From contig CAYNFH010000003.1 of the NCBI GenBank assembly GCA_964396385.1, positions 12,178-76,177 on the forward strand: a stretch of DNA of 64,000 nucleotides, read 5' to 3'. The position numbers were made by a program, and so were the translations under genes. Every line of letters begins with the position of its first letter. Position 1 is the stretch's first letter. Below, piece by piece: positions 39,141 through 64,000 of this stretch. The notes below the pieces were generated by a model. The model had not been told where the DNA came from. It did not search any database and saw only the letters and a list, made by a program, of their open reading frames with translations. The stretch comes from an uncultured Chthonomonadaceae bacterium (lineage in GTDB: Bacteria; Armatimonadota; Chthonomonadetes; Chthonomonadales; CAJBBX01).

Positions 39141-39884
39141 TCATGGCTGTACAGTGAGGCCACCAAGGTTGACGCGGACGTCCGCCTTGTGCTCGAAGTC
39201 GCCGTTGGCGACAAGCGTGAAGACAAGGTCCTGGAGGGTCTTGCCCACCGGGATTGCAAAGAGGATTGGGAAGTCAACCTTGGAACCCGGGATTAGAAAC
39301 TTCGTCTGAACGGGCGCGCCAGCAAAGTCGTAACCTACGGGGCGGAATGCCTCGCCGTCGGTATCCGCGATGGCATTATGGACATCCGAGCCGACCCACA
39401 GGCGGGAGTCCATTTTACGGCCGTTTACCACGTGGCAGTCGACCAGAATGAGCCCGTAGCCTCTCTTCGGCGTGACCACCATCGTGTCTCGTTGAACGGA
39501 CACGGCATCCTCGTCGGCCAAGGTCACGTCGGGAGTCCGCATCGTGTAGCTTTCCACCTCCTTGACGCTCAGCACGGAGAACCTCCACCGGCCGTCGAAG
39601 AGCAGGTCGCCAATCTTGCCCCGAAGGCCCTCAACCGGATTGGCGCCGCCGGCGAGCTTCATCTCGAGGCCATCTGAGCGAGTTTCTACAACCATCTGAA
39701 GCGCTCGTGCCACATCGGCAACAGGAACATAGGCCTGGCCTCCGATGGTCCGCAAGCGCGCAGATGCCACCTTTCCATTGATGATAAGCCGTGTCCCCAC
39801 ACCTAAAGCGAAGGCGTAAGAGCCACAGCATGTGACTGCTCCTAAGATCAGCCAGCAGTGCGGCCGTTTGATTTGAATAGTCAA
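39141..39884 (-). CDS. Secreted protein with a copper-amine-oxidase-N-like stalk domain and a DUF4352-like beta-sandwich
   Basis: TTG start 7 nt after AAGGAG. LIINGKVASARLRTIGGQAYVPVADVARAL, then ...GLILVDCHVVNG...FPILFAIPVG. Confidence 0.6.
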   Translation of the reverse strand: MTIQIKRPHCWLILGAVTCCGSYAFALGVGTRLIINGKVASARLRTIGGQAYVPVADVARALQMVVETRSDGLEMKLAGGANPVEGLRGKIGDLLFDGRWRFSVLSVKEVESYTMRTPDVTLADEDAVSVQRDTMVVTPKRGYGLILVDCHVVNGRKMDSRLWVGSDVHNAIADTDGEAFRPVGYDFAGAPVQTKFLIPGSKVDFPILFAIPVGKTLQDLVFTLVANGDFEHKADVRVNLGGLTVQP

Positions 39885-45297: not shown

Positions 45298-46518
45298 ATG
45301 ATCCACGACGTGGACGAGACCCTGCGCAAGCTGCTGGTGGAGGAGCTGGCTCGCATTCCCGGCGACCCCGTGCGTCACCCCGATCAGATTGGGTTCGACC
45401 CGCCGTCGGTGGCGGAGGCCATCCAGGATCGGGCGGCTCGCGTAAACCTGTACCTGCACGACGTCCGGGAGAACCGCGACCTGCGGGACGAGGGGTTCGT
45501 GTCGGTCCCCGGTCCACCGGACAGAAGCGCCGTAGGCCGCCGCCAGACGGGGGTGCGGCTGGACCTTTCCTATCTCATCACCGCGTACGCGGGCGATGAC
45601 GCCGCGGTGGAGCACCGGCTGCTGTCCGATATTCTCATCGTCCTGCTGCGCACTCTGTCGGCGCCCACCAAGTACCTCAGCGGAGAGCTGGAGGGGCTGG
45701 GCTCCAACGCCGTCCTGCTGACCGTGGCCCAGCCGGACCACATCGCTAACAGCGATCCCGCGTCCTTATGGCAGGCGCTCGGCGGAACGCTCCGGCCGGC
45801 CGTGAGCCTCGTGGTCACGACGCCGTTCGACCCGTTCGCTACCGTCTGGGCCAGGGCGGTGAAGGAGGCGATCCTGGGGGTAGGTCAGGGTCTTCCCCCC
45901 GACGGCCCCAGGCGTCCGCTGGGGATGACCGGCGTGTGGGTGAGTGCGGCCGGCGTGGCGCTGAACCAGGAGACGGAGAGACCGCTGGAGGGTGTGCGGG
46001 TAACCGTCTCCGGCCGCCGCGAGTCCGTGCACACCGATTCCCACGGGTTCTTCCACCTACTCAACCTGCCGGCCGGCCCGTATACCCTCCAGTTCGAGAA
46101 GAAAGGCTACCAGGCGCAGTCGCTGGCCGTGTACGCGCCACAGCTCGGACGACCGGACCAACTGGAGCCCACCGTCGCCGCGCTGCGTGCACTCAGCCCG
46201 GAGGAGCGCGCTGCGCAGGCTGCGGGTCAGGCGGCCGCCCGGGCCACGTCGGCCGTTATCGAGAGAGACCGTACCTACCGCGTCTCCCTCACCGGCACGC
46301 TCACCTTCGCCGATGGCCGGCCCGCCGCCAACATACCCGTCCGTGTTGGACGCCACACCACGACCACGGACCTTTCCGGAGTCTACTACTTCCTGGACCT
46401 TCCGCCGGGAGATCACACGGTCTATGCGGACGTACCCGGCCAGGGTCCACTCAAGGCGGTGCCCGGAGAGGCCACTCCCATCCTTTCCGGCCCGCCAGCC
46501 GGCCGCTCTCGTTCATAG
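45298..46518 (+). CDS. DUF4255 (Pvc16/Afp16 N-terminal-like, tail cap/terminator) fused to two carboxypeptidase-regulatory-like beta-sandwich domains
   Basis: MIHDVDETLRKLL...VNLYLHDVRENRDLR...LDLSYLITAYAG are DUF4255 hallmarks. Then VRVTVSGRRESVHTDSHGFFHLLNLPAGPYTLQFEKKGY and a second TTTDLSGVYYFLDLPPGDHTVYA. Confidence 0.8.
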   Translation: MIHDVDETLRKLLVEELARIPGDPVRHPDQIGFDPPSVAEAIQDRAARVNLYLHDVRENRDLRDEGFVSVPGPPDRSAVGRRQTGVRLDLSYLITAYAGDDAAVEHRLLSDILIVLLRTLSAPTKYLSGELEGLGSNAVLLTVAQPDHIANSDPASLWQALGGTLRPAVSLVVTTPFDPFATVWARAVKEAILGVGQGLPPDGPRRPLGMTGVWVSAAGVALNQETERPLEGVRVTVSGRRESVHTDSHGFFHLLNLPAGPYTLQFEKKGYQAQSLAVYAPQLGRPDQLEPTVAALRALSPEERAAQAAGQAAARATSAVIERDRTYRVSLTGTLTFADGRPAANIPVRVGRHTTTTDLSGVYYFLDLPPGDHTVYADVPGQGPLKAVPGEATPILSGPPAGRSRS

Positions 46519-46551
46519 CGCGGTTCCCTTTCTCGTTTGCAGGAGGACACG

Positions 46552-48405
46552 ATGCCTGAATACCTAGCACCCGGCGTATTCGTTGAAGAGATTGACAACG
46601 GCAGCAAGCCCATAGAAGGCGTGGGCACAAACACGGTCGCCTTCGTGGGCTTCGCGAAGAGCGGGGACTTCAACACCCCCACCTTTATCTCCAACTGGAC
46701 GCAGTTCTGCCAGAGCTTCGGCGAGGAGGAGAACGCGCTTGTTCGCGCCCTCTCCGACGAGCTGGGAATCACCGGCCCGGAGGTCGTAGCCGCCAAGCGC
46801 GCCTCGCGCAAAGGCTGGATAGAGTACGCGCAGACTGCGGTCCAGAGTGCTATCCGCGAGCGCCCGGCCAATGCCAAGGGTAGCAAGAGCTGGCAGGACT
46901 TCCTGCGCACCCACCAGATTCCCATGAGCGGCCTGCCATACGCGGAGGGCAGCTACCTGGCGCACACGGTCCGCGGCTACTACGACAACGGCGGAGGGCG
47001 CGCGTACATTGTGCGCATTCCACGCCGCCAGGATGTGGAGTCGCTGCTTTATAAGGTCAATGGCCAGGCCGACAGCAAGAAGCTGGCCCCGCCTCCACCA
47101 CTCACTATCGGTCCCTATACTTTCAAGGCCGCGAAGACCGCCGCAGACCCAGTTCAGATCGAGGTGGAGCACGTTGGGGACGGAGAGGAGTTCCGGATCA
47201 AGCTGTCTCAGGGCGACGCCTCGGAGTCCTATGGGTACGGCAAGGACAAGCCCTTGACTCCGGACGGGCTGGCCCAGGCGCTCACTCGCTCCAAGCTGGT
47301 GGACGTACAGACGGCGGACGCCGCCACCATGACGCGGCCGGAAGCTCGCATCTATACCATTGAGGCCGCGAGCCTCGTCCCGGTTGCTGCTTCCGGCGCA
47401 CCCGAGTCGCTCTCCGTCAGCGCGCTGGCAGCGCTCAAAGCGGAGGATTTCATTGGGGACGAGGCGCAGCGCACCGGCGTTAACGGGCTCGCGCTGCTGG
47501 ACGACGTCAACGCGGTCTGCGTGCCGGACCTCATGGCGGGCCTCTATCAGCGGCAGAGTGTAAACGGTAACGGCGGACCGGCGGTGGAGACGCTCGCACT
47601 GAACGACGCGCGCCGACAGGCGATCCTCGACGCTCAGTGCGCCGTGGTGGCCTATTGCGAGCGCTCCGCGGACCGAATGGCTATCCTGGACCCGCTGCCA
47701 GGATTGACGCCGCAGCAGATGCGCGACACCACGCTCAATACCCCCTATAACTGCGATCACGGCCAGGCGGCCATTTACTATCCCTGGATCAGGATCACGG
47801 ACCCGATGCGCCGGGGCCAGCAGATGATGTGCCCACCCTGCGGCCACGTGGCGGGCGTCTGGGTGCGGGCGGCGGTTGAGCGCGGAGTACACAAGGCACC
47901 GGCCAACGAGGCGCTGCTCGGAGCCGTGGCCCTGGAGGTGGGGATTACGAAGGGCGAGCAGGAGATCCTCAACCCGGAGGGCATCAATGCTATCCGTGCG
48001 TTCCCCGGCACCGGCATCCGCATCTGGGGCGCCCGTACGCTGGCGACCGTGGGCAACCCCTCCTGGAAGTACGTCAACGTCCGACGGTTGTTCAACTACC
48101 TGGAGAAATCCATGGAGCGCGGGCTCCAGTGGGTGGTCTTCGAGCCAAACGACTCGGACCTGTGGGGCCGGGTGCGCCGAAACATCGCCGCCTTCCTGTG
48201 GACCGAGTGGAAGGAAGGAAAGCTGTTCGGAACGACTGCGGCGGAGGCGTTCTACGTCAAGTGCGACTCGGAGACAAATCCCCAGGAGATGATCGATCTC
48301 GGCAGGCTGTACGTGGAGATCGGGGTCAACCCCGTCAAGCCGGCGGAGTTCGTGATTGTGCGCATCGGGCAGTGGTCGGCCAGCAGCAGCATCGCAGAAG
48401 CGTAG
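46552..48405 (+). CDS. Contractile tail sheath protein
   Basis: AGGAGG SD. MPEYLAPGVFVEEID is the canonical sheath N-terminus. Also GINAIRAFPGTGIRIWGARTL...NVRRLFNYLEKS...FVEF-type C-terminal motifs. Confidence 0.92.
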   Translation: MPEYLAPGVFVEEIDNGSKPIEGVGTNTVAFVGFAKSGDFNTPTFISNWTQFCQSFGEEENALVRALSDELGITGPEVVAAKRASRKGWIEYAQTAVQSAIRERPANAKGSKSWQDFLRTHQIPMSGLPYAEGSYLAHTVRGYYDNGGGRAYIVRIPRRQDVESLLYKVNGQADSKKLAPPPPLTIGPYTFKAAKTAADPVQIEVEHVGDGEEFRIKLSQGDASESYGYGKDKPLTPDGLAQALTRSKLVDVQTADAATMTRPEARIYTIEAASLVPVAASGAPESLSVSALAALKAEDFIGDEAQRTGVNGLALLDDVNAVCVPDLMAGLYQRQSVNGNGGPAVETLALNDARRQAILDAQCAVVAYCERSADRMAILDPLPGLTPQQMRDTTLNTPYNCDHGQAAIYYPWIRITDPMRRGQQMMCPPCGHVAGVWVRAAVERGVHKAPANEALLGAVALEVGITKGEQEILNPEGINAIRAFPGTGIRIWGARTLATVGNPSWKYVNVRRLFNYLEKSMERGLQWVVFEPNDSDLWGRVRRNIAAFLWTEWKEGKLFGTTAAEAFYVKCDSETNPQEMIDLGRLYVEIGVNPVKPAEFVIVRIGQWSASSSIAEA

Positions 48406-48430
48406 TCTTCGACGATAGGAGGGATTAGCA

Positions 48431-48865
48431 ATGGCTGAAGTGATTGGGGCATTGAGGTGGTACCTCGAAGTCGACGGCATAACGGAAGGAATCTTTCGGG
48501 AGGTGACGGGGCTCGATTCCGAGACGGAGGTGATCGAGCACCGGGTCACGGGCAAGAACGGCAACCTGATAGTCCACAAGGTGCCGGGTGCGCTCAAGTG
48601 GTCCAACGTCACCCTCCGCCGCGGAATTACGGACGACCGGAAGCTGCACGACTGGCGCAAAAAGATCGAGGACGGGCAGATCGAGGCGAACCGCAAGAAC
48701 GGGACGATCACCTGCTTCGCCCCGAACGGCGATGTAGTCGCAAAGTACTCGTTCAAGAAGGGCTGGCCGTGTAAGTGGCGGGGGCCGGGACTGGACGCCA
48801 CCAAGAACGAGTTGGCCATTGAAGAGCTGGAGCTGGCCCACGAGGGGCTGGAGCGCCAGCAGTAA
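48431..48865 (+). CDS. Tail tube protein (gp19/Afp1-like)
   Basis: FREVTGLDSETEVIEHR...KVPGALKWSNVTLRRGI...WPCKWRGPGLDA...IEELELAHEGL. Confidence 0.88.
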   Translation: MAEVIGALRWYLEVDGITEGIFREVTGLDSETEVIEHRVTGKNGNLIVHKVPGALKWSNVTLRRGITDDRKLHDWRKKIEDGQIEANRKNGTITCFAPNGDVVAKYSFKKGWPCKWRGPGLDATKNELAIEELELAHEGLERQQ

Positions 48866-48876
48866 TGAGGCCCTAG

Positions 48877-49221
48877 ATGAACAAGGCATCCGGCCTACAA
48901 ACCGAGTTCGAGTTCACCCTTCCTAAGGGATATGTGGGACCGGACGGTACGCTGCACCGGAAGGGCAGGATGCGCCTCGCCACGGCCATCGACGAGATCG
49001 CTCCGCTGCGGGATCCGCGCGTCCGCTCCAATGAGGCGTACCTGGTGATCATCCTGCTCGCCAGGGTGATCACCCAGCTAGGGACGCTCGACGGCATCGA
49101 CACCGGCGTGATCGAAGGGCTGTTTTCTGCCGACCTTGCCTACCTCCAGGACTTCTACCGGAAGATCAACGACGTGGATGGAGGTGAGGCCGCGGGGGAG
49201 GACGGCCAGACGGGGGAATAG
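48877..49221 (+). CDS. Tail-assembly-chaperone-like protein (P2 gpE-like)
   Basis: FEFTLPKGYVGPDGTLHRKGRMRLATAIDEIAPLRDPRV..., an acidic tail, and a position directly after the tube gene. Confidence 0.55.
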   Translation: MNKASGLQTEFEFTLPKGYVGPDGTLHRKGRMRLATAIDEIAPLRDPRVRSNEAYLVIILLARVITQLGTLDGIDTGVIEGLFSADLAYLQDFYRKINDVDGGEAAGEDGQTGE

Positions 49222-49379
49222 CGCGCTACCCCTCGGAGGCGCTGTACGAGGAGGTAGCGTACATTGCTTACCACTTCCACTGGCCGCTTGAGGACATCCT
49301 CAACCTGGAGCACGCCGAGCGCCACAAGTGGATCGAGGAGATAGGGAAGATAAACCGGCGCCTGACGGCCGGGGAGTAG
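49188..49379 (+). CDS. Start-less conserved small ORF in the -1 frame relative to 48877..49221 (YHFHW motif; DUF6760-like from memory)
   Basis: My translation is ...GGIARYPSEALYEEVAYIAYHFHWPLEDILNLEHAERHKWIEEIGKINRRLTAGE*. No ATG/GTG/TTG occurs between the upstream in-frame TGA (49185) and the conserved part. Two G5 runs lie in the overlap. Confidence 0.5.
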   Translation, partial: GRGGGRPDGGIARYPSEALYEEVAYIAYHFHWPLEDILNLEHAERHKWIEEIGKINRRLTAGE

Positions 49380-49386
49380 GGCGGAA

Positions 49387-50012
49387 ATGGTGGCTGCAGT
49401 CGCCCATGCAAACGATCTGACGCTCGCCGCGACCACGGCCGTGCTCAAGAGCTTTCTGGAGAACGGCATGGTGGATCGCGGAGTGACAGCCAACGTAGGG
49501 GCCGGGGCGCTCGTCACTGCCCAGCCCCCGGACCGCGTGGAGACGGGTCCGGAGGAGAAGGCCCAGCTCAACCTATTCCTGTACCAGGTCAAGCCAAAAG
49601 GGATGGACTACGGGAGCCGCGCGTCTCCCGGCGAGGACGAGCGCTGGGTCTCCCGGGCCGCTGCGTTTGAGCTGAACTACCTGATCACCGCCTATGGCGG
49701 CGAAGACCTCCAGCCGGAGCTGCTGCTTGGCTTCGTAGTGGAAGCGTTCGCTGAGCGTCCGGTGCTGTGCGGCGACGTCATCGGGCCGGCGCTGGCGTTC
49801 GAGGGGCACGGCAAGCCCATGGCGCCAGGCTTCGCCGCCATGCGCAAGAGCGGCCTCGATAAGCGGCTGCGTGAGATACGAATGAACCTGCAAGCGCTCA
49901 CGCCGGATGAGATGTTCAACATCTGGTCCACCCTCCAGGCGACGTTCCGGCCATCGGTGGTGTACCGAGTCCAGGTCTTTCGGGACGGGGCAGCGCAGGA
50001 AGGATCGGAGCC

Positions 50013-50016
<4 letters not shown>
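49387..50016 (+). CDS. DUF4255 (Pvc16_N) domain protein
   Basis: LNLFLYQVKP... and FELNYLITAYGGEDL are DUF4255 hallmarks. Confidence 0.8.
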
Positions 50017-52031
<2,015 letters not shown>

Positions 52032-52053
52032 GCCCGGGTTGGGAGGTGGGCGG

Positions 52054-52617
52054 ATGGCAGGCAAGATAAAGGCAGGTCTCGTAGCGCCTCAGCGCGCGAC
52101 AACTCACGAAGGAGGGCCCGCACCTGCGCCCGCCGCCCGGGGCGCGCGCACTCCGGCGATCCACACGGCCGGAAAGGCCGAGCCAGGCTTTGGCCACAAC
52201 TTCGCCAACGTACAGGTGGCGGCGGAGCCGGATGTGGACGCGCCACCAAACGTGGTGCATCGGCGGGTGATGGAGGAGATGGAGCAATCCCTGGGCGGGG
52301 GTGGCGGCGGGATGGGTAGCGCTGCCTCCGGAATGCTGGCAGGGCTGGGCGGAGGCGGGCTGGGAAGCGCCGCTTCAGGGATCATGGCAGGTTTGGGCGG
52401 GCTCGGCTTGCCGGACCCGACCTTTGGCATGGCCGGCAAAGCCCTCTCCATGGGCCAGGACGCGGCCAGCACGCTGGGTGGCGCGGCGGCGCCGTACGCG
52501 GCGCCGTTCATGAATCCTCTGGGATCGCTCGCGGGTGCGGCCAGCGGTCTAGCGGGCTCCATCGGAGGTCAGCTTCCGGCACTCCCGAGCCTCGATCCCA
52601 GCTTATTGCTTATGTAG
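52054..52617 (+). CDS. Small Gly-rich protein carrying only the FGHxF..V.V leader motif of DUF4157 (eCIS cargo-type N-terminus)
   Basis: GGGAGG SD. EPGFGHNFANVQV, then repeats of GGLGSAASG(I/M)(M/L)AGLGG. Confidence 0.6.
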   Translation: MAGKIKAGLVAPQRATTHEGGPAPAPAARGARTPAIHTAGKAEPGFGHNFANVQVAAEPDVDAPPNVVHRRVMEEMEQSLGGGGGGMGSAASGMLAGLGGGGLGSAASGIMAGLGGLGLPDPTFGMAGKALSMGQDAASTLGGAAAPYAAPFMNPLGSLAGAASGLAGSIGGQLPALPSLDPSLLLM

Positions 52618-52650
52618 AAGCGGTAGGCGAGTACGGCGCAGGTTGAAGGC

Positions 52651-54912: not shown

Positions 54913-54976
54913 ACCCACGATGCGTCACAGATCGGGCCCCTGGAGGCTCGGGCAGTTGACTGAGAGAGGTTAGCCA

Positions 54977-57919
54977 ATGGGCGGGCGGGCGATGCGATCA
55001 TCCAAGCATGCCGAGGCACCGGGTCATGCGGAAGCGGTTCACACGGGAGTGCGTGACACCGTTCAGCAGGGCACGCGCGCCGGAGGCAGTCCGCTGCCGC
55101 ACGCCGCCCGGGTGAAGATGGAAGAGCGGTTTGGTCACGACTTCGGCCAGGTTCGCGTTCACGACGGACCGGATGCGAACCTCTCGGCGGATGGCCTAGC
55201 TGCCCATGCCTATACCGTTGGATCCGACATAGTGTTCAACCAGGGGAAATTCAATCCAGACAACGCGGACGGCGAGGAGATGCTGACGCACGAGCTGACG
55301 CACGTTATTCAGCAGGGCGGTCAATCCGCGGCCAGCGCGGGCGGCGAGCTGGAAATCAGCGACCCTTCCGATCCGGCGGAGCAAGAGGCGCATGAGCTGG
55401 CAAAGGAGATGCGGGGCGACGAGGATTCCGCAAGTCCTTCGGCCGCCCCGGCGGCTTCGGTCCATCGCTGGCCCTGGGATGACGACGATAAGAAGAGTGG
55501 AGGCGGCGGAGGCAGCAGCCCCGGCATACTGGACAGCCTGGGCTCGATGGCTTCCGGAGCGTGGGATGCAACCAAGGCGGGCGCATCGGCTGTGGGTGGC
55601 GCGGCCTCAGGTGCTTACGATAAGTACCAGCAGATGACGGACACCAAGCCGGTAGCAGCCGGAGACGCCAAGATCGACTGGACCGGCAAGACCCCGATCT
55701 CGTGGACACAGGCCTTGGGCGCCGGCGTTGATTGGATGGAGAAGAAAGCGGGCGAGGGGCTGGATGCAGGGGCCAAGTCGGCGGAAGGCATTCCGGTTCT
55801 GGAGCAGCTTGCCGGCGCAGGGGCATTTGTGGGCAAGGGAATGACCAATCTTACGGGCGGGGTCATTCGAGGAGCCGGGGATATTGTCGGCGGAATCGAG
55901 AATGTCTTTGCCCATCCGATTGACTCGGCGGCAGGGATCGAAGGCATTCTGGAGCACAACAGCACCATTCCCTTCATGGGCTCCACCCTCAAGGCCATCC
56001 ACGGAGCGTACGACATCGCAACGGACAAGAAGAACGCGGAGTACGGCAACTCCTGGGGCGATCTGGCCAATCACGTCTTCAACCCCATGCAGCAGATGAA
56101 GGACGACCAGGCATTCGATTCCAACCTGGCGCGGGGCATTGTGGCTCCGGGAACGAAGGACTGGGGCGACGCGTGGAACCACATCAAGGAAAACCCGATG
56201 GATGCGCTCGGGCGGGCAGGGACGAACGTGCTGCCCATGGTCATGGGGATGGGCGAAGCGGGGGCCGGAGAGGCCGCAGGGGAAGGCAGCGGAGCAGCCA
56301 GGGCCGCGGGTGAGGGAGGCGCGGGCGCTGGAGCCAAGACGTTGCCCGGACTCGGACCGCCCGGTCCGCCCGTGAAGACGCTTCCCGGATTGGGACCTCC
56401 TGGCCCAGAACTGCCAGTCCCGGTGGAGGCTCCTTCTGTACCGAAAGCGCCTTCGGGCGGCGTCCCCGAGCCCGCCGTGGCGCCGGCCGAAGCGCCAGTA
56501 GCGCCCTCCGAGCCCGCCCCAGCGGCGCCACGGCCCAAGGCCAATGTAGAGATCAACGCGAACGTGGCCAAACCCGGTCAGGGCAACGTACAGATTATAA
56601 AGAACATCCTCGAGAAGCCGCCCGGCGAGGCGCCTGGTGTTCCGCCGACGGAGCGCGGTCCGCTGACTTCGCCTGCCGCGGAGAGTGTCCCCCCTCCAAC
56701 CGAGGCCGTGCCTACGGTCCGCGAGCCTCACGTAGTCAACCCGAGCGGCGAGCCCGTGGTGGTAAACCCCAACGCGCCCTTCTTTGCGGACCCGGGCGAC
56801 CCCACGGTTCATCCGCTGGAATCACCCGCGGCCAAGAGCCTGCCCGCGCCTCCCACGGTGCCGGATCCCGCTACAATTCCGGGGCCCCTTGACGTCCCCC
56901 CAGCCACCGTGCCGGATCCACCCACTCTTCCCGGCCTTGGGCCAAAGACGCTTCCGGGACTCGGGGTTCCAGGCCCCGAGCTGCCGTCGGCCATCAGCCA
57001 GCTCGATCCCGCTCTGTTCGAGCCGGCGCCCGTCACACCGAAGGTACCCTCGCGGCCGCCGGGAGTTCCTGCGCCCGAGCCGTTCAATCCGGATATCCCG
57101 GTGATTGAGCCGGAGCCCCCGACAGGTCCACCTCGGCCGGCGCCGGCCCCCGAGCCGCCAGCGCCAAACATCCACGAGGCGCCGAGCCATGTGCCAAGCG
57201 GAGAGCCCAGCAGCAACGCCTTCTCGCATGGCAGGCTCGAACCGTTCAGGCACGTGCCGGAGCCCAGCGTTCCGCCGGGATTTGAAAACGTGCCGCGGCC
57301 GTTCCCTGCCCCGCGAGAGCCGGTCCCCCTGCCGGACCAGACTCCTTCCCTGGGTTCCGTTCCGGATCCGGCGACCATTCCACCGGAACGGCCCCCAAAT
57401 ACGGTGGTGCAAGAGCCCCAGTCAACGCTTCCATCCAGCTCCGGGCCCTCAAGCAGCTCGAGTTTCCCGGAAGTGCCTTCGTTCCCGAGCTCCGAGTTCC
57501 CGGCACCCACCATCCCGGACGGGCCGCCGACTATCAGGGAGCCTGACTTTAGCCCGAAGCCTCCGGGGGCCCCCATCGCCCCGGAGCCGATCCCGAAGCT
57601 GCCAGGCGGCCCCAAAGAGGGACCTCCGATCCCGCGCGAGGAACCGCTGTCGCGCCCGGCAGACACGCCGCGTCAACCGATCGATATACCGGGCTCCATA
57701 CCGCCGCCGCCCGACACAATACCCGACGGACCAATCACGCAGGATGCTCCGTCCTCATCGGGCAGCGAGACGCCGACGCTGCGCGGGCTGGGAGGCGTGC
57801 CGGCCATACCGCGCGGGTTTGATCCGGGCGCCTTGATCCAGCTCATGCTCGACACTCCGGGCGCTGGAAGCGTTGTCGAACTGATGCAGCAGCTCGGCAT
57901 GCCCACGCGACGCGCCTGA
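54977..57919 (+). CDS. Full DUF4157 (zincin HExxH) cargo/effector with the shared central module and a ~580-aa Pro-rich C-terminal region
   Basis: LPHAARVKMEERFGHDFGQVRVHDG...AHAYTVGSDIVFNQGKF...EEMLTHELTHVIQQ. KTLPGLGPPGP repeats. GAGAGG SD. Confidence 0.85.
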   Translation: MGGRAMRSSKHAEAPGHAEAVHTGVRDTVQQGTRAGGSPLPHAARVKMEERFGHDFGQVRVHDGPDANLSADGLAAHAYTVGSDIVFNQGKFNPDNADGEEMLTHELTHVIQQGGQSAASAGGELEISDPSDPAEQEAHELAKEMRGDEDSASPSAAPAASVHRWPWDDDDKKSGGGGGSSPGILDSLGSMASGAWDATKAGASAVGGAASGAYDKYQQMTDTKPVAAGDAKIDWTGKTPISWTQALGAGVDWMEKKAGEGLDAGAKSAEGIPVLEQLAGAGAFVGKGMTNLTGGVIRGAGDIVGGIENVFAHPIDSAAGIEGILEHNSTIPFMGSTLKAIHGAYDIATDKKNAEYGNSWGDLANHVFNPMQQMKDDQAFDSNLARGIVAPGTKDWGDAWNHIKENPMDALGRAGTNVLPMVMGMGEAGAGEAAGEGSGAARAAGEGGAGAGAKTLPGLGPPGPPVKTLPGLGPPGPELPVPVEAPSVPKAPSGGVPEPAVAPAEAPVAPSEPAPAAPRPKANVEINANVAKPGQGNVQIIKNILEKPPGEAPGVPPTERGPLTSPAAESVPPPTEAVPTVREPHVVNPSGEPVVVNPNAPFFADPGDPTVHPLESPAAKSLPAPPTVPDPATIPGPLDVPPATVPDPPTLPGLGPKTLPGLGVPGPELPSAISQLDPALFEPAPVTPKVPSRPPGVPAPEPFNPDIPVIEPEPPTGPPRPAPAPEPPAPNIHEAPSHVPSGEPSSNAFSHGRLEPFRHVPEPSVPPGFENVPRPFPAPREPVPLPDQTPSLGSVPDPATIPPERPPNTVVQEPQSTLPSSSGPSSSSSFPEVPSFPSSEFPAPTIPDGPPTIREPDFSPKPPGAPIAPEPIPKLPGGPKEGPPIPREEPLSRPADTPRQPIDIPGSIPPPPDTIPDGPITQDAPSSSGSETPTLRGLGGVPAIPRGFDPGALIQLMLDTPGAGSVVELMQQLGMPTRRA
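55544..56169 (+). repeat. 626-bp segment 100% identical to 52921..53546 (copy 2)
   Basis: See copy 1. Confidence 0.9.
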
Positions 57920-57977
57920 CGGGGATCACGTTCAGACAACTTGTGAAGACGCGGCGGAGTGAAGGAGCAGATGAGCC

Positions 57978-58268
57978 TTGGCAGCCGGTGAAGCGGAAGA
58001 GGAGGAGGCTGGCGTAAGCCAGCAGCGCGAGCAGCGGGCTCCGACTCCCGCCCTTGTCTTCGCGATTCCAGCGAAGACCGCGGCCTCCGAGGGGCCGGCC
58101 GCCCCATCGCAAACTGCAACCGAGGATCGAGGGGCAGCCGCCAAGCAGGGCTCCGGCGCGGCACCGGGGCAGGCGGATCCGCGCGCGGTGGCGGACCGTG
58201 TGTACGAGCTGATGCGGGAAGAAATGGAGCATTCGGTGCTCCGCGGGATGCGGCGGCGGGGATGGTGA
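57978..58268 (+). CDS. Small acidic/Ala-rich protein whose C-terminal motif is shared with the 1043-aa protein
   Basis: TTG start 10 nt after GGAG. C-terminus AVADRVYELMREEMEHSVLRGMRRRGW compares with LLATEVWSILKRRLEIEGERRGRR. Confidence 0.4.
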   Translation: MAAGEAEEEEAGVSQQREQRAPTPALVFAIPAKTAASEGPAAPSQTATEDRGAAAKQGSGAAPGQADPRAVADRVYELMREEMEHSVLRGMRRRGW

Positions 58269-58281
58269 GACGGAAGAGCTG

Positions 58282-58313
58282 GTGTTCAGGTGTTCAGGTC
58301 TTCAGGTGTTCAG
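58282..58313. repeat. Tandem octamer block, 4 x GTGTTCAG, between CIS genes
   Basis: gtgttcag gtgttcag gtcttcag gtgttcag. Confidence 0.8.
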
Positions 58314-58343
58314 GAACAGAAACGGGGAGGGGCTTAGCAGACG

Positions 58344-58823
58344 ATGTTAGTTGCCACACGTCCTTCGTCCAACGGCAGCCAGGCGCCGGCGGAGCAGCCG
58401 AGATCAAAGGACCCGCATCTGGGGCTGCGGTTCTGGGTGCAGCTCGGCCAGGTGGAGGTGGCGGGCTTTCAGGAGTGCTCCGGCCTGGAGATTGAAACCG
58501 AGGTCTTCGAGTACCGCGAGGGCGGCCTGAACACCTATGTCCACAAGCTGCCTGTGCGCGCCAAGTACAAGAACATCACTCTCAAACGCGGCCTGGACGA
58601 GAACCAGGACCTCTATAGCTGGTACGTCAAGGCCATGAACAACGACATGGGCCGGCAGAACATCTCCATCATCGTCTATGACTCGCTCGGCAAGCAGGTG
58701 GAGAAGTGGGACCTCCAGCGGGCATGGCCGTGCAAATGGACGGGACCCGAGCTAAAGGCTGAACACGGGGCGGTCGCGGTGGAGACGGTCGAGATAGCCC
58801 ACGAGGGACTGCTGCCCCGGTAA
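58344..58823 (+). CDS. Second tail tube-family protein (Afp5/Pvc5-like)
   Basis: FQECSGLEIETEVFEYREGG...KLPVRAKYKNITLKRGL...WPCKWTGPELKA...VETVEIAHEGL, parallel to the first tube protein. Confidence 0.85.
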   Translation: MLVATRPSSNGSQAPAEQPRSKDPHLGLRFWVQLGQVEVAGFQECSGLEIETEVFEYREGGLNTYVHKLPVRAKYKNITLKRGLDENQDLYSWYVKAMNNDMGRQNISIIVYDSLGKQVEKWDLQRAWPCKWTGPELKAEHGAVAVETVEIAHEGLLPR

Positions 58824-58869
58824 GGAAGAGCGCCGCTCCCCTTTTGCGGCGCAACACACGGAACACGAC

Positions 58870-61800
58870 ATGCGTAAGGAAGCCCAGCCGGCGGCAATGC
58901 TGAAGGTTCCGCTGTCCGTCCGCCGGACGGCGGCGTTCGGCCGCATGGTAGCCGGCCGCGTGGGGAGCACGTGGAGTCCCGTGGCGGCACGCGTCAGGAT
59001 GCTCTCCCGGACCTCACGCGCGCGCCTGGCCGGCTGGCGGTTGGACCGGCTGGCGTCCTGGACCAACCCATTCCTCCATGGGTTCATAACGCGCGGCATG
59101 AGCCGTTTTGGCTTGCTGGAGCGGGCGCGCCCCGCCCTCGACCTCTATCTGTCCAGACCGGCCATCCCGATGGTCTCCTGGCTCGGAGTGGCGGCGCCGC
59201 AGCCGGAGCGTTTCGAGCCGGAGCCGTTCGAGCTTTCTCGGAGCTTCGGCTCGCCAGGAGCATATACAGCGGCAGGGGCCGCGGACAGTACAAGAGGCGG
59301 CCCGGTGGGGCTGCCGATCCGGGCGGCGCTCCCGGCCCGGATGAGACCTGCACCTGCTCCGGAAGGACAAGCGGTCTTGCCGAGGGATGTAGGAGTGCGG
59401 CCCTTCGCGCCACATAGCGTCTCGAGCCCCCAGGGCGCCCTGCGCCATGGGCAGGGTGCGCATCTCCGGACGAGCCTCGCCAGCCAGATCGCGCGCTCCC
59501 ACCGCCTGATTACGCGCGCGCCGGTGCGCAGCTCACATGTCGCGGCAGCCCTGAAGTCTGGCACGAATCCGTCGCGACCTGTGGTGCGGGCGCCGTCCTC
59601 ACGGGTCCACCGCTCCGCAGGTATGGCGTCGGTTCGGGGCGGAATCGCGCCTCCGCGGCTGGCCGCACCCAGCATCCTTCGGGGCCGCGGACTTCCGCGT
59701 CCCGTGACGCCCGCCGGGCAGGTCGGGTCCGTTGCGGCGCGAACTCGCCCGAGACAGGACCATGCGGCCGGCAAGCGGATTCTGCCACGCGGCCAAACCG
59801 GGCATCCTTCTACGCTCGCATTCCTGCCCCTCAGCGCGAGTCCTACGGCGGCGCCGGACGCGACTCCGGACGGGAGCCCTTTCCGGCACCGCCCGCAGCC
59901 GGACTCAGCAGATTCCCCGTCGCTTCGCGGCACTGAGCATCTGGCGGAGATGGGCGAGATACGGGGCCAGAGTCTGGAGGGCGCGCCAGGCGCTGCCCTG
60001 CCATTCCCAGAAGGATTGAGCAGGATCCTGGCCTTTGTGAACGGGCAGGTCCCCCGCGCGGCCGGATCGAGCGGGCCTGTGATGGAGAACCGCAGCGGCG
60101 GGGTTAAAGAGTCTGGGCGCGGATCGGAAGGGCTACTACGCCGCCGAGGAGAGCTGCCTGTCCTCGGGATGACAGATCGCGGCTTCGCGCGGTCTGGAGG
60201 TACGGGAGAGTTGCGGGAAGCAAAGCAGGTCCCTCCCAGTGTCCTGCCCTCTGCGCACCGCGCATTCACCCGCCTGGAGATGGCAAGTCGCTACGATAGA
60301 TACTCTGGAGGCACAGCGTTCAAATCGGCAGGCGGCCAGGTCCCTCGATTCCCCGGGATAACAAGTTGGTACGTTCCGGTCCTCTCGCATACGGCGTCGC
60401 ACTTGCCCCATGGGGTTCCTCGGAACAGCCCGCACGGCGCGGCGATCCTGGATCCGCGCGAGGCCGGCGGCATCGCACCGAGGTTGTTGAAGAACGTAAC
60501 GCAGGGTGGAGGCGGCAAGCCGGGCCAATCAGCTCTGGTGTCGCGCGCAGTGGCCGCACCGCGGGTTCCGGGACTCCATATTGTGGCCCGTGCCCCGCGG
60601 CTGACTCCCGGGCCGGCCGCCAGCCGAGTGACCCGATCAATCGGCGCGGCAAGGGCTTCCGGGCTGGATGCGCCGCCGCCGCCGAGGACGCCACAGAAGC
60701 AGACGGTGGCGCACCGGCAGGGAGCAATCGGACCGATGGCGGCCGTGGTCGCCCGGCGATACCCGGCGCTCGCGGATAGAGCTCCGGAGCATGCGGTGGT
60801 ACGGCCGGTGATACGGCCATTCCTGGCGGAGATATGGGCAAAGAGCGACGGAGTGACGCGAGCGATTCGGGGGCCGGGTCCGCGCAGACCCGATCTTCGA
60901 AGTGGAGATGGGGCCACCTTCACGCCAGCTCGTGCGTGGGAGTCGAGGCCGGACCCTGCAGTTGACGGCTTCTTACCACTCTCAATCCCGAGTCACGGCC
61001 TTTGGACCCAGGCAGACGTGCCAGACCCGGTTGACGCGGGCTGGCAAAGCTCGGCGCATGGCCCTGCGAAACCAGTCACCGCGTGGACAATAGGTCCGCA
61101 GCCGGAGGCAGTTCGGCAGCGACCGACCGGACCAGCGCGGTCCGCTCCCGTACGGCCGGTCGGCACGCCGCGGGTAATGCGCTCCGCGCGCGGCGTCGCG
61201 ACCAGACCGACCCAATCTCCTGCGCCCGCTGCATCGAGATCGGCGCGTTCGCGAAGCGCCATTCCCGACCTGAGGAGCCGCCTTTCGCCAGCACTGGCGC
61301 GGCTCGTGACCAGCCGTGCACAGCGCGGTGGACATGCGGACCCGGCGGTAGCCCCGGTTTTCTCCTCCCCTCTGATGGCGGCAGGTGGCGGGAGAACAGT
61401 CGGGCTGCCGGCTCAACTTTCCGCACACATACTCGGGCCGCCCCGGCGCCTGCCGAAAATCGGCGAATCGCCTAAGCCAACCGGCGCTTCGCTCCCGATA
61501 GCCCGTGGCCCGACGCGACCGCAGCCGTTCCCAGACCTGGTCACCGGAGAGTCCGCACCGGCAACCAGGCCGATCGGGCGGCGGGACCGGGCTAATGTTA
61601 TGTTGGTGGACTCCTTGAAGCCGGCACACAGCCTACCGGCTATGGCAGAGCGCCTGCCCATGGCACCGGTCGGAGCAGCGCGTCCGACCGGTGCCAAATC
61701 GGCCGGAACGACCGGTGAGACAGTCGCGCGGACGCCCGGAATATCGGCCCGCGCTGCGGCGCCCGCATTATGGATGCCGACCCTGCCCGCCCTTTCCCGC

Positions 61801-62001
61801 GCTCGGCAGAAGGCAATTCCCGTAGTGCAGCGGGAGGCGTCCGAGTCGCCGGCGCCTACCGGGAGCAAGGCGCATTCGGCCGAGGCGGCCAAGGGCGATA
61901 CGGGCGACGCGGCCAACCAGGTGCAACTTCTGGCTACGGAGGTGTGGTCTATCCTGAAGCGGCGTCTGGAGATAGAGGGCGAGCGCCGGGGTCGGCGGTG
62001 A
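58870..62001 (+). CDS. 1043-aa Arg/Pro/Ala/Ser-rich low-complexity protein; positional candidate for tail-length (tape-measure-like, Afp14-type) protein
   Basis: Uninterrupted 3.1-kb ORF between the tube-2 and LysM genes. Only the C-terminal 25 aa look ordered. Confidence 0.55.
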   Translation: MRKEAQPAAMLKVPLSVRRTAAFGRMVAGRVGSTWSPVAARVRMLSRTSRARLAGWRLDRLASWTNPFLHGFITRGMSRFGLLERARPALDLYLSRPAIPMVSWLGVAAPQPERFEPEPFELSRSFGSPGAYTAAGAADSTRGGPVGLPIRAALPARMRPAPAPEGQAVLPRDVGVRPFAPHSVSSPQGALRHGQGAHLRTSLASQIARSHRLITRAPVRSSHVAAALKSGTNPSRPVVRAPSSRVHRSAGMASVRGGIAPPRLAAPSILRGRGLPRPVTPAGQVGSVAARTRPRQDHAAGKRILPRGQTGHPSTLAFLPLSASPTAAPDATPDGSPFRHRPQPDSADSPSLRGTEHLAEMGEIRGQSLEGAPGAALPFPEGLSRILAFVNGQVPRAAGSSGPVMENRSGGVKESGRGSEGLLRRRGELPVLGMTDRGFARSGGTGELREAKQVPPSVLPSAHRAFTRLEMASRYDRYSGGTAFKSAGGQVPRFPGITSWYVPVLSHTASHLPHGVPRNSPHGAAILDPREAGGIAPRLLKNVTQGGGGKPGQSALVSRAVAAPRVPGLHIVARAPRLTPGPAASRVTRSIGAARASGLDAPPPPRTPQKQTVAHRQGAIGPMAAVVARRYPALADRAPEHAVVRPVIRPFLAEIWAKSDGVTRAIRGPGPRRPDLRSGDGATFTPARAWESRPDPAVDGFLPLSIPSHGLWTQADVPDPVDAGWQSSAHGPAKPVTAWTIGPQPEAVRQRPTGPARSAPVRPVGTPRVMRSARGVATRPTQSPAPAASRSARSRSAIPDLRSRLSPALARLVTSRAQRGGHADPAVAPVFSSPLMAAGGGRTVGLPAQLSAHILGPPRRLPKIGESPKPTGASLPIARGPTRPQPFPDLVTGESAPATRPIGRRDRANVMLVDSLKPAHSLPAMAERLPMAPVGAARPTGAKSAGTTGETVARTPGISARAAAPALWMPTLPALSRARQKAIPVVQREASESPAPTGSKAHSAEAAKGDTGDAANQVQLLATEVWSILKRRLEIEGERRGRR

Positions 62002-62040
62002 TTGCGGCTCTGCGGCGCTTCCTGGCACGGAGAACGAGAC

Positions 62041-62688
62041 ATGGGACTTACGAAAGCTACCATCACAAACCTGGAAACGAACGAGCAGATTTCGTGCAAG
62101 TTCAACCCCACCGAGTACACGATTAACAAGGAGAACTCCTGGAAGAGCAAGCCGGTGGTGGGAAAGAACGTGCCCAAGCTGGAGTTCACGGGCGGTGGCG
62201 CGCAGATACTGACCATGGAGCTCTTCTTCGACGCCCACGAGGATAAGGGCGATGTCCGCGTCGATGTGAAGAAGCTGATGGCGCTCACCCTCATCCACCC
62301 GAAGCCGAAGAACGACAAGACCAAGCGCTCGCGGCCACCCCTATGCATCTTCCAGTGGGGACCCAACTGGGAGTTCAAGGCGGCCGTCACCAAGCTTTCG
62401 GTCAAGTACACGCTCTTCCATCAAGACGGCACGCCTGTCAGGGCGACGGCCAACATTACCTTCCAGGAGGCGGAGGACGAGAAGGAGCAGAAGAAGACCA
62501 ACCCCACCTCCTACTCGGAGCCCGGCCGCAAGCGTAGGGAGGTCCGGCCGCACGATACCCTGGCGCTGATCGCCTTTGAGGAGTTCGGCGACCCCACCTT
62601 GTGGCGGCAGATCGCCGATGAGAACCGGCTGGACGACCCCCTCTCGCTGCATGCCGGCCAGATCATCTCTATCCCGCCGCGCGCGTAA
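62041..62688 (+). CDS. Tube-initiator-like protein with a C-terminal LysM domain (Afp7/Pvc7-like)
   Basis: FNPTEYTINKENSWK...LEFTGGGAQILTMELFFD is tube-fold-like. LysM region is HDTLALIAFEEFGDPTLWRQIADENRLDDPLSLHAGQIISIP. Confidence 0.8.
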   Translation: MGLTKATITNLETNEQISCKFNPTEYTINKENSWKSKPVVGKNVPKLEFTGGGAQILTMELFFDAHEDKGDVRVDVKKLMALTLIHPKPKNDKTKRSRPPLCIFQWGPNWEFKAAVTKLSVKYTLFHQDGTPVRATANITFQEAEDEKEQKKTNPTSYSEPGRKRREVRPHDTLALIAFEEFGDPTLWRQIADENRLDDPLSLHAGQIISIPPRA

Positions 62689-62701
62689 CCGTGGAATACC
62701 C

Positions 62702-64000
62702 ATGGCTCAAGAACCGCACGTACCGCAATTCAACCTGAAGATAAACGGGCAGCAAGCGCCTAAAGAGGTGATGGACCAGATGCTCGACTGTACGGTCGAG
62801 AACAGCCTCCACCTGCCCGACATGTGCACCGTCCGCATCCACGACGCTGGCTTTAAGTGGCTGGACGAGCAGGTCTTCCGCGAGGGTAAGAAGATGGAGG
62901 TGGAGGGAAGTGAAGGCGAGTCCGCGCCGCTAGCCTCCCTATTCAAGGGGGAGATCACGGGGCTGGAGCTGGACCTGGCCGGGCACGGCGTCCCCACGCT
63001 GGTGGTGCGCTGCTTCGACCGCGCACACCGCCTCCACCGAGGGCGGATGAGCCGCTCCTTCGTGCAGGTCACCGACACGGACATCGTGCGGAAGGTGGGC
63101 GAGGAAGCCGGATTCAGCGTCGAGGCAGATGGGGCGACCGAAGTGTACGACTGGGTGATGCAGAACAACCAGACGAACTGGGAGTTTCTCACGGACCGCG
63201 CGCGGCGGATCGGCTACCGCCTCTACGTGAAGGACGCCGACAAGCTGTGCTTCAAGAAGGTGCAGGAGCCTACCGGCGACACTATCCAGCTCGATTGGGG
63301 CAAGAACCTCCGCTCCTTCCGTCCGCGCACGTCCGCATCGCCCCAGGTAGATGAGGTGACGGTCCGCGGATGGGACCCCGGGCGCAAGGAGCCGATCATC
63401 GGCCGGTGCACGAACGCGGCGGGGACGCCGGACGTGGGCGAGGATCGTCGGGGCGGAGAGGTCGGACACAAAGCGTTCGGAGCGGCGCGGATGGTGCTGG
63501 TGGACCAGCCTATCCAGACGCAGAATGAGGCCGATAACCTGGCGCGATCCATCTGCGATTCTATCGGCAACAGCTTCCTGGAGGCGGAGGGGCTCTGCTA
63601 CGCGGTACCCGGGCTGATGCCGGGGAAGGTGGTGGAGATCAAGAACATCGGCCGGAGGTTCAGCGGCAAGTACTACGTGACCGCTACGACCCACACCTAT
63701 ACGCCGGGAGAGGGCTACTCCACGCTCTTCGCCGTGAGCGGCAAGCAGCCGGGCACGCTGCTCTCGCTGCTGGACGGCGAGGACGCCGCGGCGCGGATGA
63801 AGCTGGGGGGCAATATCGTCATCGGCGTGGTAACCAACAACCAGGATCCGGAGGACCGCGGGCGGGTCAAGGTCCGGTACCCTTGGCTCTGCGACCAGGA
63901 CGAGAGCTACTGGGTGCGCGTGGCGGCACCCATGGCCGGTGCGGGTCGCGGCTTCTACTACATTCCCGAGGTGGACGACGAGGTGCTGGTGGCGTTTGAG
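62702..64000 (+). CDS. VgrG/gpD-gp5-like baseplate hub-spike protein (Afp8/Pvc8-like), 3' end off window
   Basis: Not in the track because it is open to the edge. My translation from ATG 62702 gives MAQEPHVPQFNLKINGQQAP...VENSLHLPDMCTVRIHD...QNNQTNWEFLTDRARRIGYRLYV...GKYYVTATTHTY...GVVTNNQDPEDRGRVKVRYPWL...YWVRVAAPMAG...YIPEVDDEVLVAFE. Confidence 0.88.
   Translation, partial: MAQEPHVPQFNLKINGQQAPKEVMDQMLDCTVENSLHLPDMCTVRIHDAGFKWLDEQVFREGKKMEVEGSEGESAPLASLFKGEITGLELDLAGHGVPTLVVRCFDRAHRLHRGRMSRSFVQVTDTDIVRKVGEEAGFSVEADGATEVYDWVMQNNQTNWEFLTDRARRIGYRLYVKDADKLCFKKVQEPTGDTIQLDWGKNLRSFRPRTSASPQVDEVTVRGWDPGRKEPIIGRCTNAAGTPDVGEDRRGGEVGHKAFGAARMVLVDQPIQTQNEADNLARSICDSIGNSFLEAEGLCYAVPGLMPGKVVEIKNIGRRFSGKYYVTATTHTYTPGEGYSTLFAVSGKQPGTLLSLLDGEDAAARMKLGGNIVIGVVTNNQDPEDRGRVKVRYPWLCDQDESYWVRVAAPMAGAGRGFYYIPEVDDEVLVAFE

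Follow-up and report, generated by a model that had tools for sequence, protein, structure and literature searches.

We examined a gene series at positions 45298–64000 of a 64,000-nt stretch of contig CAYNFH010000003.1, from an uncultured Chthonomonadaceae bacterium (the whole stretch is called the window here); the series lies on the forward (+) strand and is cut by the window end. These tightly spaced, co-directional genes are best explained as the 5' two-thirds of an operon that encodes a contractile injection system (CIS) of the lineage that includes the Streptomyces system CIS^Sc (type IId-like), and we regard this explanation as a whole, including the inferred steps of assembly, loading and firing, as likely. 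By itself the locus is of modest value: a well-catalogued family gains an Armatimonadota-type member whose modules are rearranged and whose cargo includes a deaminase. Two outcomes are more general. A frameshift signal, made up of a −1 frame, a slippery heptamer and a hairpin, is conserved in CIS loci of distant bacteria and archaea, and a long protein with a conserved C-terminal helix is ever-present in them.

Structural genes and lineage of the locus

The original prediction had read the series as a CIS operon with embedded cargo genes, and each gene that it listed was recovered on the + strand at its predicted position, with family matches far beyond chance (coordinates below refer to this strand unless marked otherwise). 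The sheath protein (46552–48405; Pfam Phage_sheath_1 and Phage_sheath_1C, E~1e-17) is closest in the PDB to that of the Streptomyces coelicolor CIS (8bky/9gtp, E=3e-133), followed by 9ezm (4e-92), while the Anabaena, PVC, Afp and AlgoCIS sheaths are more distant and span 1e-38 to 1e-43 (Anabaena 2e-43, Pvc2 1e-41, AlgoCIS 3e-38). The gene at 45298–46518 encodes a Cis16-like cap or tail terminator with a Pvc16_N/DUF4255 domain (E=2.5e-26), followed by two CarboxypepD_reg beta-sandwich domains (E=2.5e-22) that are additional in comparison with CIS^Sc; it matches the CIS^Sc Cis16 chain 9gts_0A (E=3e-19). A Cis7/Afp7-like tube initiator (62041–62688; Pfam CIS_tube and LysM, E=4e-31) matches 9gtp_P, again of CIS^Sc (E=1.7e-24). 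CIS^Sc chains are therefore the top PDB matches for sheath, cap and tube initiator, which is a similarity ranking among solved structures and not a dbeCIS phylogeny.

The window and CIS^Sc also have in common two tube paralogues, a DUF4255–AAA+ pair and nearby BTAD-type regulators. Tube 1 (48431–48865; Pfam Phage_T4_gp19, E=4e-37) is probably the major tube protein, judging by its PDB matches, which are the major tube proteins of AlgoCIS and the Anabaena CIS. The matches of the Afp5/Pvc5-like tube 2 (58344–58823; Pfam gp19, E=7e-45) include Afp5, Pvc5 and All3323, none of which was matched by tube 1. Because tube 2, unlike tube 1, matches Afp5 and Pvc5, it would be the ring adjoining the baseplate. 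A second DUF4255 protein (49387–50016; Pvc16_N, E=4e-27), for which the PDB search returned no relative, precedes an AAA+ ATPase of the Cis15/Pvc15/Alg15 type (50013–52031; Pfam AAA, E=7e-25, and a WHD variant). By analogy, this ATPase is the presumed cargo loader. The last gene, truncated at the window end, encodes a VgrG-like spike or hub (62702–64000; Pfam Phage_GPD and Phage_base_V).

The sheath, a gp19-type tube, the LysM initiator and VgrG thus stand in one operon, together with two Pvc16_N proteins and one AAA+ ATPase, which are markers that distinguish extracellular contractile injection systems (eCIS) from phages and pyocins. Codon-position GC bias backs these + frames and opposes the overlapping open reading frames (ORFs) on the opposite strand. 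A scan for promoters and terminators gave no signal exceeding shuffled expectation.

It weighs against this assignment that the genes of the locus for the baseplate wedge and PAAR, and for any fibre or anchor, fall beyond the window end. Wedge and PAAR genes are present in the syntenic relatives L004, L005, L040, L054 and L086. As a comparison set, 80 loci that contain the chaperone family described below were annotated using the window's own proteins. L004 is a metagenome-assembled genome (MAG) of the Chthonomonadaceae whose 618-aa VgrG is 64% identical to that of the window; there, VgrG is followed by PAAR, gp25, Baseplate_J, Tail_P2_I and a DUF4159 protein, after which the coding strand switches. 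The same baseplate gene order is seen in Capsulimonas corticalis (L005) and in further loci. Neither the 25 kb upstream of our locus nor the part after the L004 baseplate contains genes for a capsid, portal, terminase, integrase or the membrane complex of a type VI secretion system (T6SS).

The core genes are all derived from phage tails, and the chaperone and frameshift arrangement is phage-like, as would be expected of the tail module of a defective prophage or of an R-type tailocin. We consider this origin highly improbable, since DUF4255 caps, an AAA+ ATPase and DUF4157 cargo are hallmarks of CIS and not of phages or pyocins (PMC8213781), a search of 50,697 phage genomes gave no match to the chaperone family, and no lysis, head or integrase genes lie nearby. 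The best relatives of CIS^Sc type, the baseplate genes in syntenic loci and the chromosomal flanks argue together for a CIS and not a prophage. The original prediction had favoured a tailocin-like or injection device over a prophage and reported no capsid, terminase or integrase genes; both the decision against a prophage and this absence agree with what we found. The word "extracellular" in its label is, however, not established, by analogy with the nearest characterised relative, which acts in the cytoplasm (PMC10066040, PMC12237407).

The Afp and PVC systems of Serratia and Photorhabdus share with the window the sheath, tube, Afp5-like tube, LysM protein Afp7, VgrG protein Afp8, ATPase Afp15 and cap Afp16. 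They differ in having three sheath paralogues, Afp13 fibres, the tape measure Afp14 and toxins at the 3' end that lack DUF4157. We know of no chaperone/DUF6760 pair in Afp or PVC.

The chaperone–DUF6760 junction and its frameshift signal

The gene after tube 1 encodes a chaperone-like protein of 114 aa (48877–49221), the putative "G" product, which matches PHROG 508 "tail assembly chaperone" (E=5.7e-5). In the −1 frame it is followed by an ORF with DUF6760 (49188–49379; Pfam, E=4e-16), the putative "T" extension. Similarities to Gp41_Mu (114-aa protein, E=0.15) and to P2 GpE (DUF6760, E=0.021) are weak and below the Pfam cutoffs, and NCBIfam has no model matching the chaperone, DUF6760, the cargo proteins or the long protein. 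We found 7334 homologues of the chaperone, the top ones 72–89% identical, and its closest named relatives are from Fimbriimonas, Capsulimonas and an Armatimonadota MAG, all of them Armatimonadota, which makes this the probable phylum of the host. The family is on 48 plasmids and in none of the phage records.

Chaperone pairs made by −1 frameshifting are familiar from phages, as in lambda (G/GT), P2 (E/E+E') and Mu (gp41/gp42). The window has the same features, namely a small gene that follows the tube gene directly and has an in-phase heptamer close to its end, a startless −1 ORF and a predicted downstream hairpin. In contrast to the phage chaperones, this family is specific to CIS, and its fusion product is here predicted from sequence. 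The long ORF of the window is also not adjacent to the chaperone genes, from which it is separated by ~9.5 kb of ATPase, cargo and tube-2 genes.

The 114-aa gene ends in ACG GGG GAA TAG, where the in-phase heptamer G GGG GAA (49212–49218) lies immediately 5' of the stop codon TAG (49219–49221). The DUF6760 ORF, open in the −1 frame, is free of ATG, GTG and TTG. A ribosome slipping by −1 on the heptamer, assisted by the hairpin described below, would continue into DUF6760 and make a 166-aa product, with the predicted junction peptide INDVDGGEAAGEDGQTGEIAR (containing ...DGQTGEIAR...).

In 78 of 78 related loci, DUF6760 occupies the −1 frame. All 71 distinct junctions have an in-phase slippery heptamer, which is <=6 nt from the stop codon in 69 of them; the heptamers are G GGG GAA (24 junctions), G GGG GGA (18), G GGG GGG (15), C CCT TTA (7), C CCG GGG (3), G GGA AAC (2), C CCT TTC (1) and T TTG GGG (1). 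As a control, a heptamer of this kind was found in 29 of 1698 other long ORFs of the same DNA (1.7%). S. clavuligerus (CTG GGG GAA TCG TGA) shares this arrangement, as does the archaeon Halogeometricum borinquense (ACG GGA AAT).

A predicted frameshift-stimulating hairpin with the core GCUACCCCUC...GAGGAGGUAGC (49223–49260) starts 4–6 nt past the heptamer. Its free energy is −23.1 kcal/mol (z=−3.25), and 95.7% of cells are paired across 30 loci. The synonymous sites of its arms are frozen: a Val codon is GTA in 56 of 61 cases, a Tyr codon is TAC in 64 of 67 as compared to 36 of 66 at another Tyr, and Glu is encoded by GAG in 94–97% as compared to 71% elsewhere. The divergent loci with C CCT TTA have different hairpins at the same place. 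An alternative junction structure from RNAalifold, in which the G-run pairs with CCCC, was weaker and was rejected; the single-sequence fold gives a GCUACC/GGUAGC stem. We also observed that GAGGAGGTAGC, the Glu-Glu-Val-Ala codons of DUF6760 within 49225–49258, has the same nucleotides in all 30 aligned loci, even at the rare Val codon GTA; it lies at the same place in L005, L007 and L010–L089, forms the 3' arm of the hairpin and is at the same time a near-perfect Shine-Dalgarno sequence.

Several points count against frameshifting at this junction. The heptamer G GGG GAA departs from the canonical X XXY YYZ pattern; it is near-canonical, and canonical heptamers occupy the same place in 47 of the 71 relatives. 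The base pairs of the hairpin vary so little that they give no true covariation. With a predicted local distance difference test (pLDDT) score of 54, the chaperone's structure model is too poor for a fold test. At 13 of the 71 junctions an ATG or GTG overlaps the stop codon, so reinitiation is possible in some.

These junctions, together with the non-canonical heptamer of the window and the annotation of DUF6760 as a gene of its own in H. borinquense, S. clavuligerus, L005 and L007, are what one would expect if DUF6760 were a separate small protein, made by termination-reinitiation or from a non-canonical start, with neither frameshift nor fusion. We regard this as unlikely, as it does not fit the 37 of 71 junctions, that of the window included, which have no ATG, GTG or TTG. 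Reinitiation also leaves unexplained why an in-phase heptamer, in eight different sequences, is found at every junction and why a hairpin with frozen synonymous sites follows 4–6 nt downstream. Nor does it account for natural in-frame fusions of the two proteins. These fusions, recovered in a search with the predicted 166-aa product, are 174–177 aa long and cover 95–97% of it, and as sequences they show that a fused chaperone–DUF6760 polypeptide is viable. One of them (L092) has the slippery configuration minus one G in the run, which is either real or a homopolymer sequencing error. Frameshifting into DUF6760 thus remains our preferred reading of the junction. In the literature that we searched, which is incomplete, there is no mention of DUF6760, no use of "slippery" together with "contractile injection", and no report of frameshifting in CIS.

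Two further observations concern these relatives. The MAG contig with the L092 fusion (1–4298) encodes sheath, tube, fusion, sheath and tube, that is, two consecutive sheath-tube pairs. Some relatives (P0147, P0148 and P0155) have tandem chaperone domains in one protein of 211–251 aa, and these proteins often end in a CxxC...CxxC zinc-ribbon-like tail that is missing from the window protein.

The long hub-adjacent protein and the tape-measure question

Between tube 2 and the tube initiator lies a low-complexity ORF of 1043 aa (58870–62001) without a family match. Its product is rich in Ala, Pro, Arg, Gly and Ser (12% Pro, 10% Gly), with a pI of 11.9 and a net charge of +82. Codon-position GC bias is weak in this ORF. 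We nevertheless consider that the ORF did not arise by chance, because it runs for 1043 stop-free codons at an estimated ~2% stops per random codon and because its C-terminus is conserved. Among 1.84 billion representative proteins there is no full-length homologue; only the last 40–90 aa find matches. The conserved part is a C-terminal helix (...LLAxEVWSxLKRRLxxExERxGR; window ~61915–61998), and 17 of 17 surveyed loci in which the long ORF upstream of the LysM gene is readable have its motif in this ORF. In S. clavuligerus, the motif is found in a 1381-aa low-complexity ORF directly after DUF6760, which is missing from the plasmid's gene table.

The same helix motif is carried by the C-terminus of p96 (AVADRVYELMREEM...RRRGW), a small protein of 96 aa encoded at 57978–58268. 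Its own match is weak (E=0.003 in a single-sequence search). Small ORFs of L034, L057, L060 and L066 that lie between DUF6760 and tube 2 belong to the same family as p96.

In phages, the G/GT chaperones serve the tape measure protein. The 1043-aa protein fits such a role because it is encoded next to the hub genes by the largest ORF, is conserved solely at its hub-proximal C-terminus and constantly co-occurs with a chaperone pair of G/GT type. On this sequence evidence we propose that it is probably the tape measure. Three points speak against the proposal: no Pfam, PHROG or NCBIfam tape-measure family matches the protein, its 12% proline makes it unlikely to be a usual helical ruler, and the length of the long ORF ranges from ~600 to 2544 aa among relatives, about a four-fold spread. 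Neither homology to tape-measure families nor helical or coiled-coil character was found.

The absence of such homology, the proline-rich and probably disordered sequence and the length range would also suit an effector or plug that fills the lumen or is bound to the hub, like Tme of S. davawensis, with particle length set otherwise. At the same genomic position, Tme is an ejected effector, and work on CIS^Sc reports no tape measure (PMC11126660; PMC10066040, PMC12237407). The effector-type gene of the S. davawensis CIS, like the long ORF of the window, is embedded in the structural operon, immediately upstream of the genes for the tube initiator and the spike; Tme is likewise the largest ORF product and largely disordered, and DUF4157 is associated with the cluster. 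Tme differs in having an N-terminal DUF4157, transmembrane helices and a C-terminal nuclease (PMC11126660), while the DUF4157-type genes of the window are separate and lie upstream of tube 2. We consider an effector or plug possible and lean against it, as the 1043-aa protein has no DUF4157 and no recognisable enzymatic domain, a conserved phage-type chaperone pair is always encoded alongside it, and conservation confined to a hub-proximal C-terminal helix is typical of tape measures. The roles of ruler and of effector or plug are not mutually exclusive.

With the tape measure as the preferred role, assembly may proceed as follows. The baseplate hub, made of the LysM protein, VgrG and wedge proteins encoded past the window, would nucleate the particle, and the basic 1043-aa protein would dock in it through its C-terminal helix and extend up the tube lumen as a length ruler, handled by the phage-type chaperone pair of 114 aa and 166 aa. 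Tube 2 would form the first ring and tube 1 the tube, around which the sheath would polymerise before the Cis16-like cap closes the particle.

More broadly, we put forward, with confidence that falls just short of even, that the whole CIS^Sc-like group, including the window, Streptomyces type IId and haloarchaeal CIS, keeps a phage tail-length module made of a frameshifted G/GT-type pair and a hypervariable disordered tape measure, which would be recognisable solely by a C-terminal helix of ~28 aa that is common to a small paralogue (p96 here). The S. coelicolor protein SCO4251 is presumably the homologue of the chaperone, given its position right after the tube gene. It is described as a protein of unknown function found in particle preparations (PMC10020575). 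According to the CIS^Sc papers a tape-measure gene is absent, yet the particles are uniformly 268 nm long (PMC10066040; PMC12237407). If true, the tail-length module would contradict the published statements that there is no tape measure and would explain the uniform 268 nm of the S. coelicolor particles. Length control in CIS would then be testable via one ORF, which is relevant to those who engineer CIS for protein delivery. In this way, both the frameshift and the candidate tape measure bear on an open point for the entire type IId group.

As a separate observation, [VIL]QR motifs are abundant in the long proteins of some relatives, with 20 in S. clavuligerus (0.6 expected) and 15 in L034 (0.9 expected). 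Such proteins are encoded at L091 14543–18688 (the S. clavuligerus plasmid), L034 11569–14034, L022 5191–12825 and L033 2734–5442. The motif often takes the form PAVQRTP, and in cargo proteins the same VQR/VHR motif comes after the DUF4157 domain; it may serve as a site for a protease or for binding. We rejected such repeats as a feature of the window's long protein, which has 2 as compared to 1.1 expected.

Cargo genes, module order and neighbouring genes

Three cargo-type genes, c7 (192 aa, 52039–52617), c8 (753 aa, 52651–54912) and c9 (980 aa, 54977–57919), follow the ATPase gene. The original prediction had described three genes with DUF4157 leaders; there are indeed three cargo-type genes, of which only the third has an intact DUF4157 (E=2e-29 when rounded). 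Its reading of the genes as cargo is borne out by the full DUF4157/eCIS_core domain of c9 and by a deaminase domain of SsdA type in c8. c9 is a classical DUF4157 cargo with a disordered leader and an intact eCIS_core domain (nt 55091–55324) that includes HELTH (Pfam, E=1.7e-29), followed by a conserved helical domain (MID), a Pro-rich region of ~500 aa and a conserved C-terminal element of ~45 aa. Its homologues P0123–P0137 have MID, and several also have the C-terminal element. In the structure model of DUF4157 plus MID (overall pLDDT 65), the DUF4157 part has a pLDDT >90 and MID is partly confident; Foldseek found no match of this model in the PDB below E=1.9.

c8 consists of a leader, degenerate DUF4157 flanks, MID, a Pro-rich linker and the deaminase domain. 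c7, which would have 187 aa if it starts from the ATG at 52054, has a leader with FGHNF..V.V and VHR and a Gly/Ala-rich C-terminus, and belongs to no family in Pfam, PHROG or NCBIfam searches. In an alignment, c7 and c8 keep the motifs FGH(D/N)F..V.V and VHR that flank DUF4157, while the HExxH core of ~90 residues between them is gone. The public annotation of c8 (P0121, 662 aa, MASGAWD...) begins 91 residues late and omits the leader and the region shared with c9.

The MID-coding part of c8 is one copy of a 660-nt direct repeat (52897–53556), the other copy lying in c9 (55520–56179). The copies differ by 3 mismatches, and identity collapses just past ~53557. A recent duplication or gene conversion of MID is suggested by this near-identity and the sharp end of the repeat. 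The block common to c8 and c9 suggests a route by which new toxin domains could be swapped onto one carrier. A protein with DUF4157 plus MID also occurs as an orphan (P0128, L009 10001–12033) with a small downstream gene; it lies among metabolic genes of a 1.27-Mb contig, far from CIS genes.

The C-terminal domain of c8 (54376–54726) is a cytosine deaminase of the SsdA family (BaDTF2), with Pfam SsdA_C matched at E=5e-9 and 37.2 bits, as compared to a Pfam cutoff of 27. It aligns with SsdA in PDB 7jtu (E=7e-13), where SHAE and KPMC..C of c8 fall on the SsdA catalytic motifs, so that c8, by its sequence, ends in an SsdA-type deaminase with intact catalytic motifs. SsdA is a T6SS single-strand DNA deaminase toxin of Pseudomonas syringae with the homologous domain and the same SHAE and Cys motifs. 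In contrast to SsdA, c8 would be delivered by a tail-like particle, has a different N-terminal carrier and lacks an adjacent SsdI-like immunity gene. EAT11, an eCIS deaminase toxin, is a precedent for deaminase cargo linked to DUF4157 (PMC8213781).

AlgoCIS of Algoriphagus machipongonensis, with its cargo proteins Cgo1 and Cgo2, resembles the window in the disordered N-terminal leader, DUF4157 and variable C-terminal domain of the cargo (PMC8894135; 10.64898/2026.05.27.728243), in having two or three paralogous cargo genes with a common leader, and in an AAA+ ATPase that acts in loading. It differs in lineage (clade Ib), in its tail fibres and cage and in having a tape measure that is recognised as such (Alg14), while two of the three cargo genes of the window are without the DUF4157 core. 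Cgo1 and Cgo2 sit inside the lumen of the tube, and the ATPase loads cargo via the disordered leader (PMC8894135; 10.64898/2026.05.27.728243), a role in cargo loading that was shown for Alg15 and Pvc15 (10.64898/2026.05.27.728243; PMC11495950). By analogy with Alg15 and Pvc15, the ATPase of the window would thread c7, c8 and c9 into the lumen by their disordered N-terminal leaders. The two large cargo proteins have net charges of −32 and −52 and the long protein +82; we speculate that the oppositely charged proteins are packed together in the tube lumen. Contraction would then expel tube, spike and cargo, and the deaminase would damage the DNA of a recipient cell, which may be a neighbour (extracellular mode) or the producer itself (cytoplasmic mode, as in Streptomyces).

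The likely host phylum is diderm and non-mycelial, which argues against the cytoplasmic mode, in which the particle would act inside the producer as a stress-fired CIS leading to regulated cell death and the deaminase would hit the cell's own DNA. We consider this mode quite possible, leaning mildly against it. CIS^Sc is cytoplasmic, fires under stress and mediates regulated cell death (PMC10066040, PMC12237407), and the nearest solved relatives of the window proteins are all CIS^Sc chains. The relatives have no Afp13-type fibre after the baseplate, where L004 and L069 have a DUF4159 protein, and no immunity gene adjoins the deaminase gene: 64 nt separate it from the next gene, and the sole overlapping ORFs are on the opposite strand with contrary GC bias. 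The missing immunity gene is also a point against our overall reading of the locus; however, many eCIS toxins likewise have neither immunity genes nor fibres (PMC8213781). A CisA-like membrane adaptor was not seen, the DUF4159 protein of L004 has no hydrophobic segment, and the downstream part of this contig lies outside the window.

Across the comparison set, the common gene order is (DUF4255 – AAA – DUF4157 genes) – cap – sheath – tube 1 – chaperone – DUF6760 – (DUF4157 genes) – tube 2 – long ORF – LysM – VgrG – PAAR – gp25 – gp6 – gp7-like, with the cap gene preceding the sheath gene in all surveyed loci. In 10 of 23 informative loci, the interval between DUF6760 and tube 2 holds DUF4157 genes, so mid-operon cargo is typical of the lineage. 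The original prediction had placed the cargo between the ATPase and tube 2, which is correct, and had contrasted this position with the 3' end used in Afp/PVC; among the related loci it is ordinary. The S. davawensis CIS also has an internal effector gene (PMC11126660). The AAA gene is upstream of the cap gene in 13 surveyed loci and between DUF6760 and tube 2 in the window only; the window thus departs from the usual type IId order, with ATPase and effectors upstream of the cap-sheath operon. L013, L028 and S. clavuligerus likewise have the second DUF4255 gene beside the AAA gene. The window is therefore a rare permutation in which the DUF4255–ATPase pair has joined the internal cargo site. 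In comparison with CIS^Sc, the DUF4255–ATPase–cargo module lies inside the operon, after DUF6760, and not upstream of the sheath operon, and the long ORF comes after tube 2 and not before; the cargo proteins also differ, the host is not an actinomycete, and a CisA homologue was not found. The individual traits of this locus are the internal DUF4255–ATPase module, the two cargo genes minus the DUF4157 core and the recently copied carrier domain on an SsdA-type deaminase.

Upstream, the CIS operon diverges from − strand genes at 39915–45114, which encode two secreted caspase-like proteins (Peptidase_C14 and DUF4384) and a 699-aa cell-wall hydrolase (LysM and NlpC/P60). We considered a conserved link between the CIS and these caspase and NlpC/P60 genes and dropped it, as Peptidase_C14 is upstream in L007 only and no homologues turned up in the other loci. 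A SARP/AfsR-like protein (35896–38910, − strand; Pfam Trans_reg_C, BTAD, NB-ARC and TPR) is a candidate regulator, and ordinary chromosomal genes lie further upstream of it. A GerE/LuxR-family protein is encoded near the operon at 25528–27159 (+). Both BTAD and GerE/LuxR domain types have been reported in regulators adjacent to eCIS (PMC8213781), and the S. clavuligerus CIS cluster also contains BTAD genes. The 247-aa protein encoded at 39141–39884 (− strand), without a Pfam match, has a homologue (E=2e-48) at L024 3226–3957, between the cap and sheath genes, and may be a CIS accessory protein.

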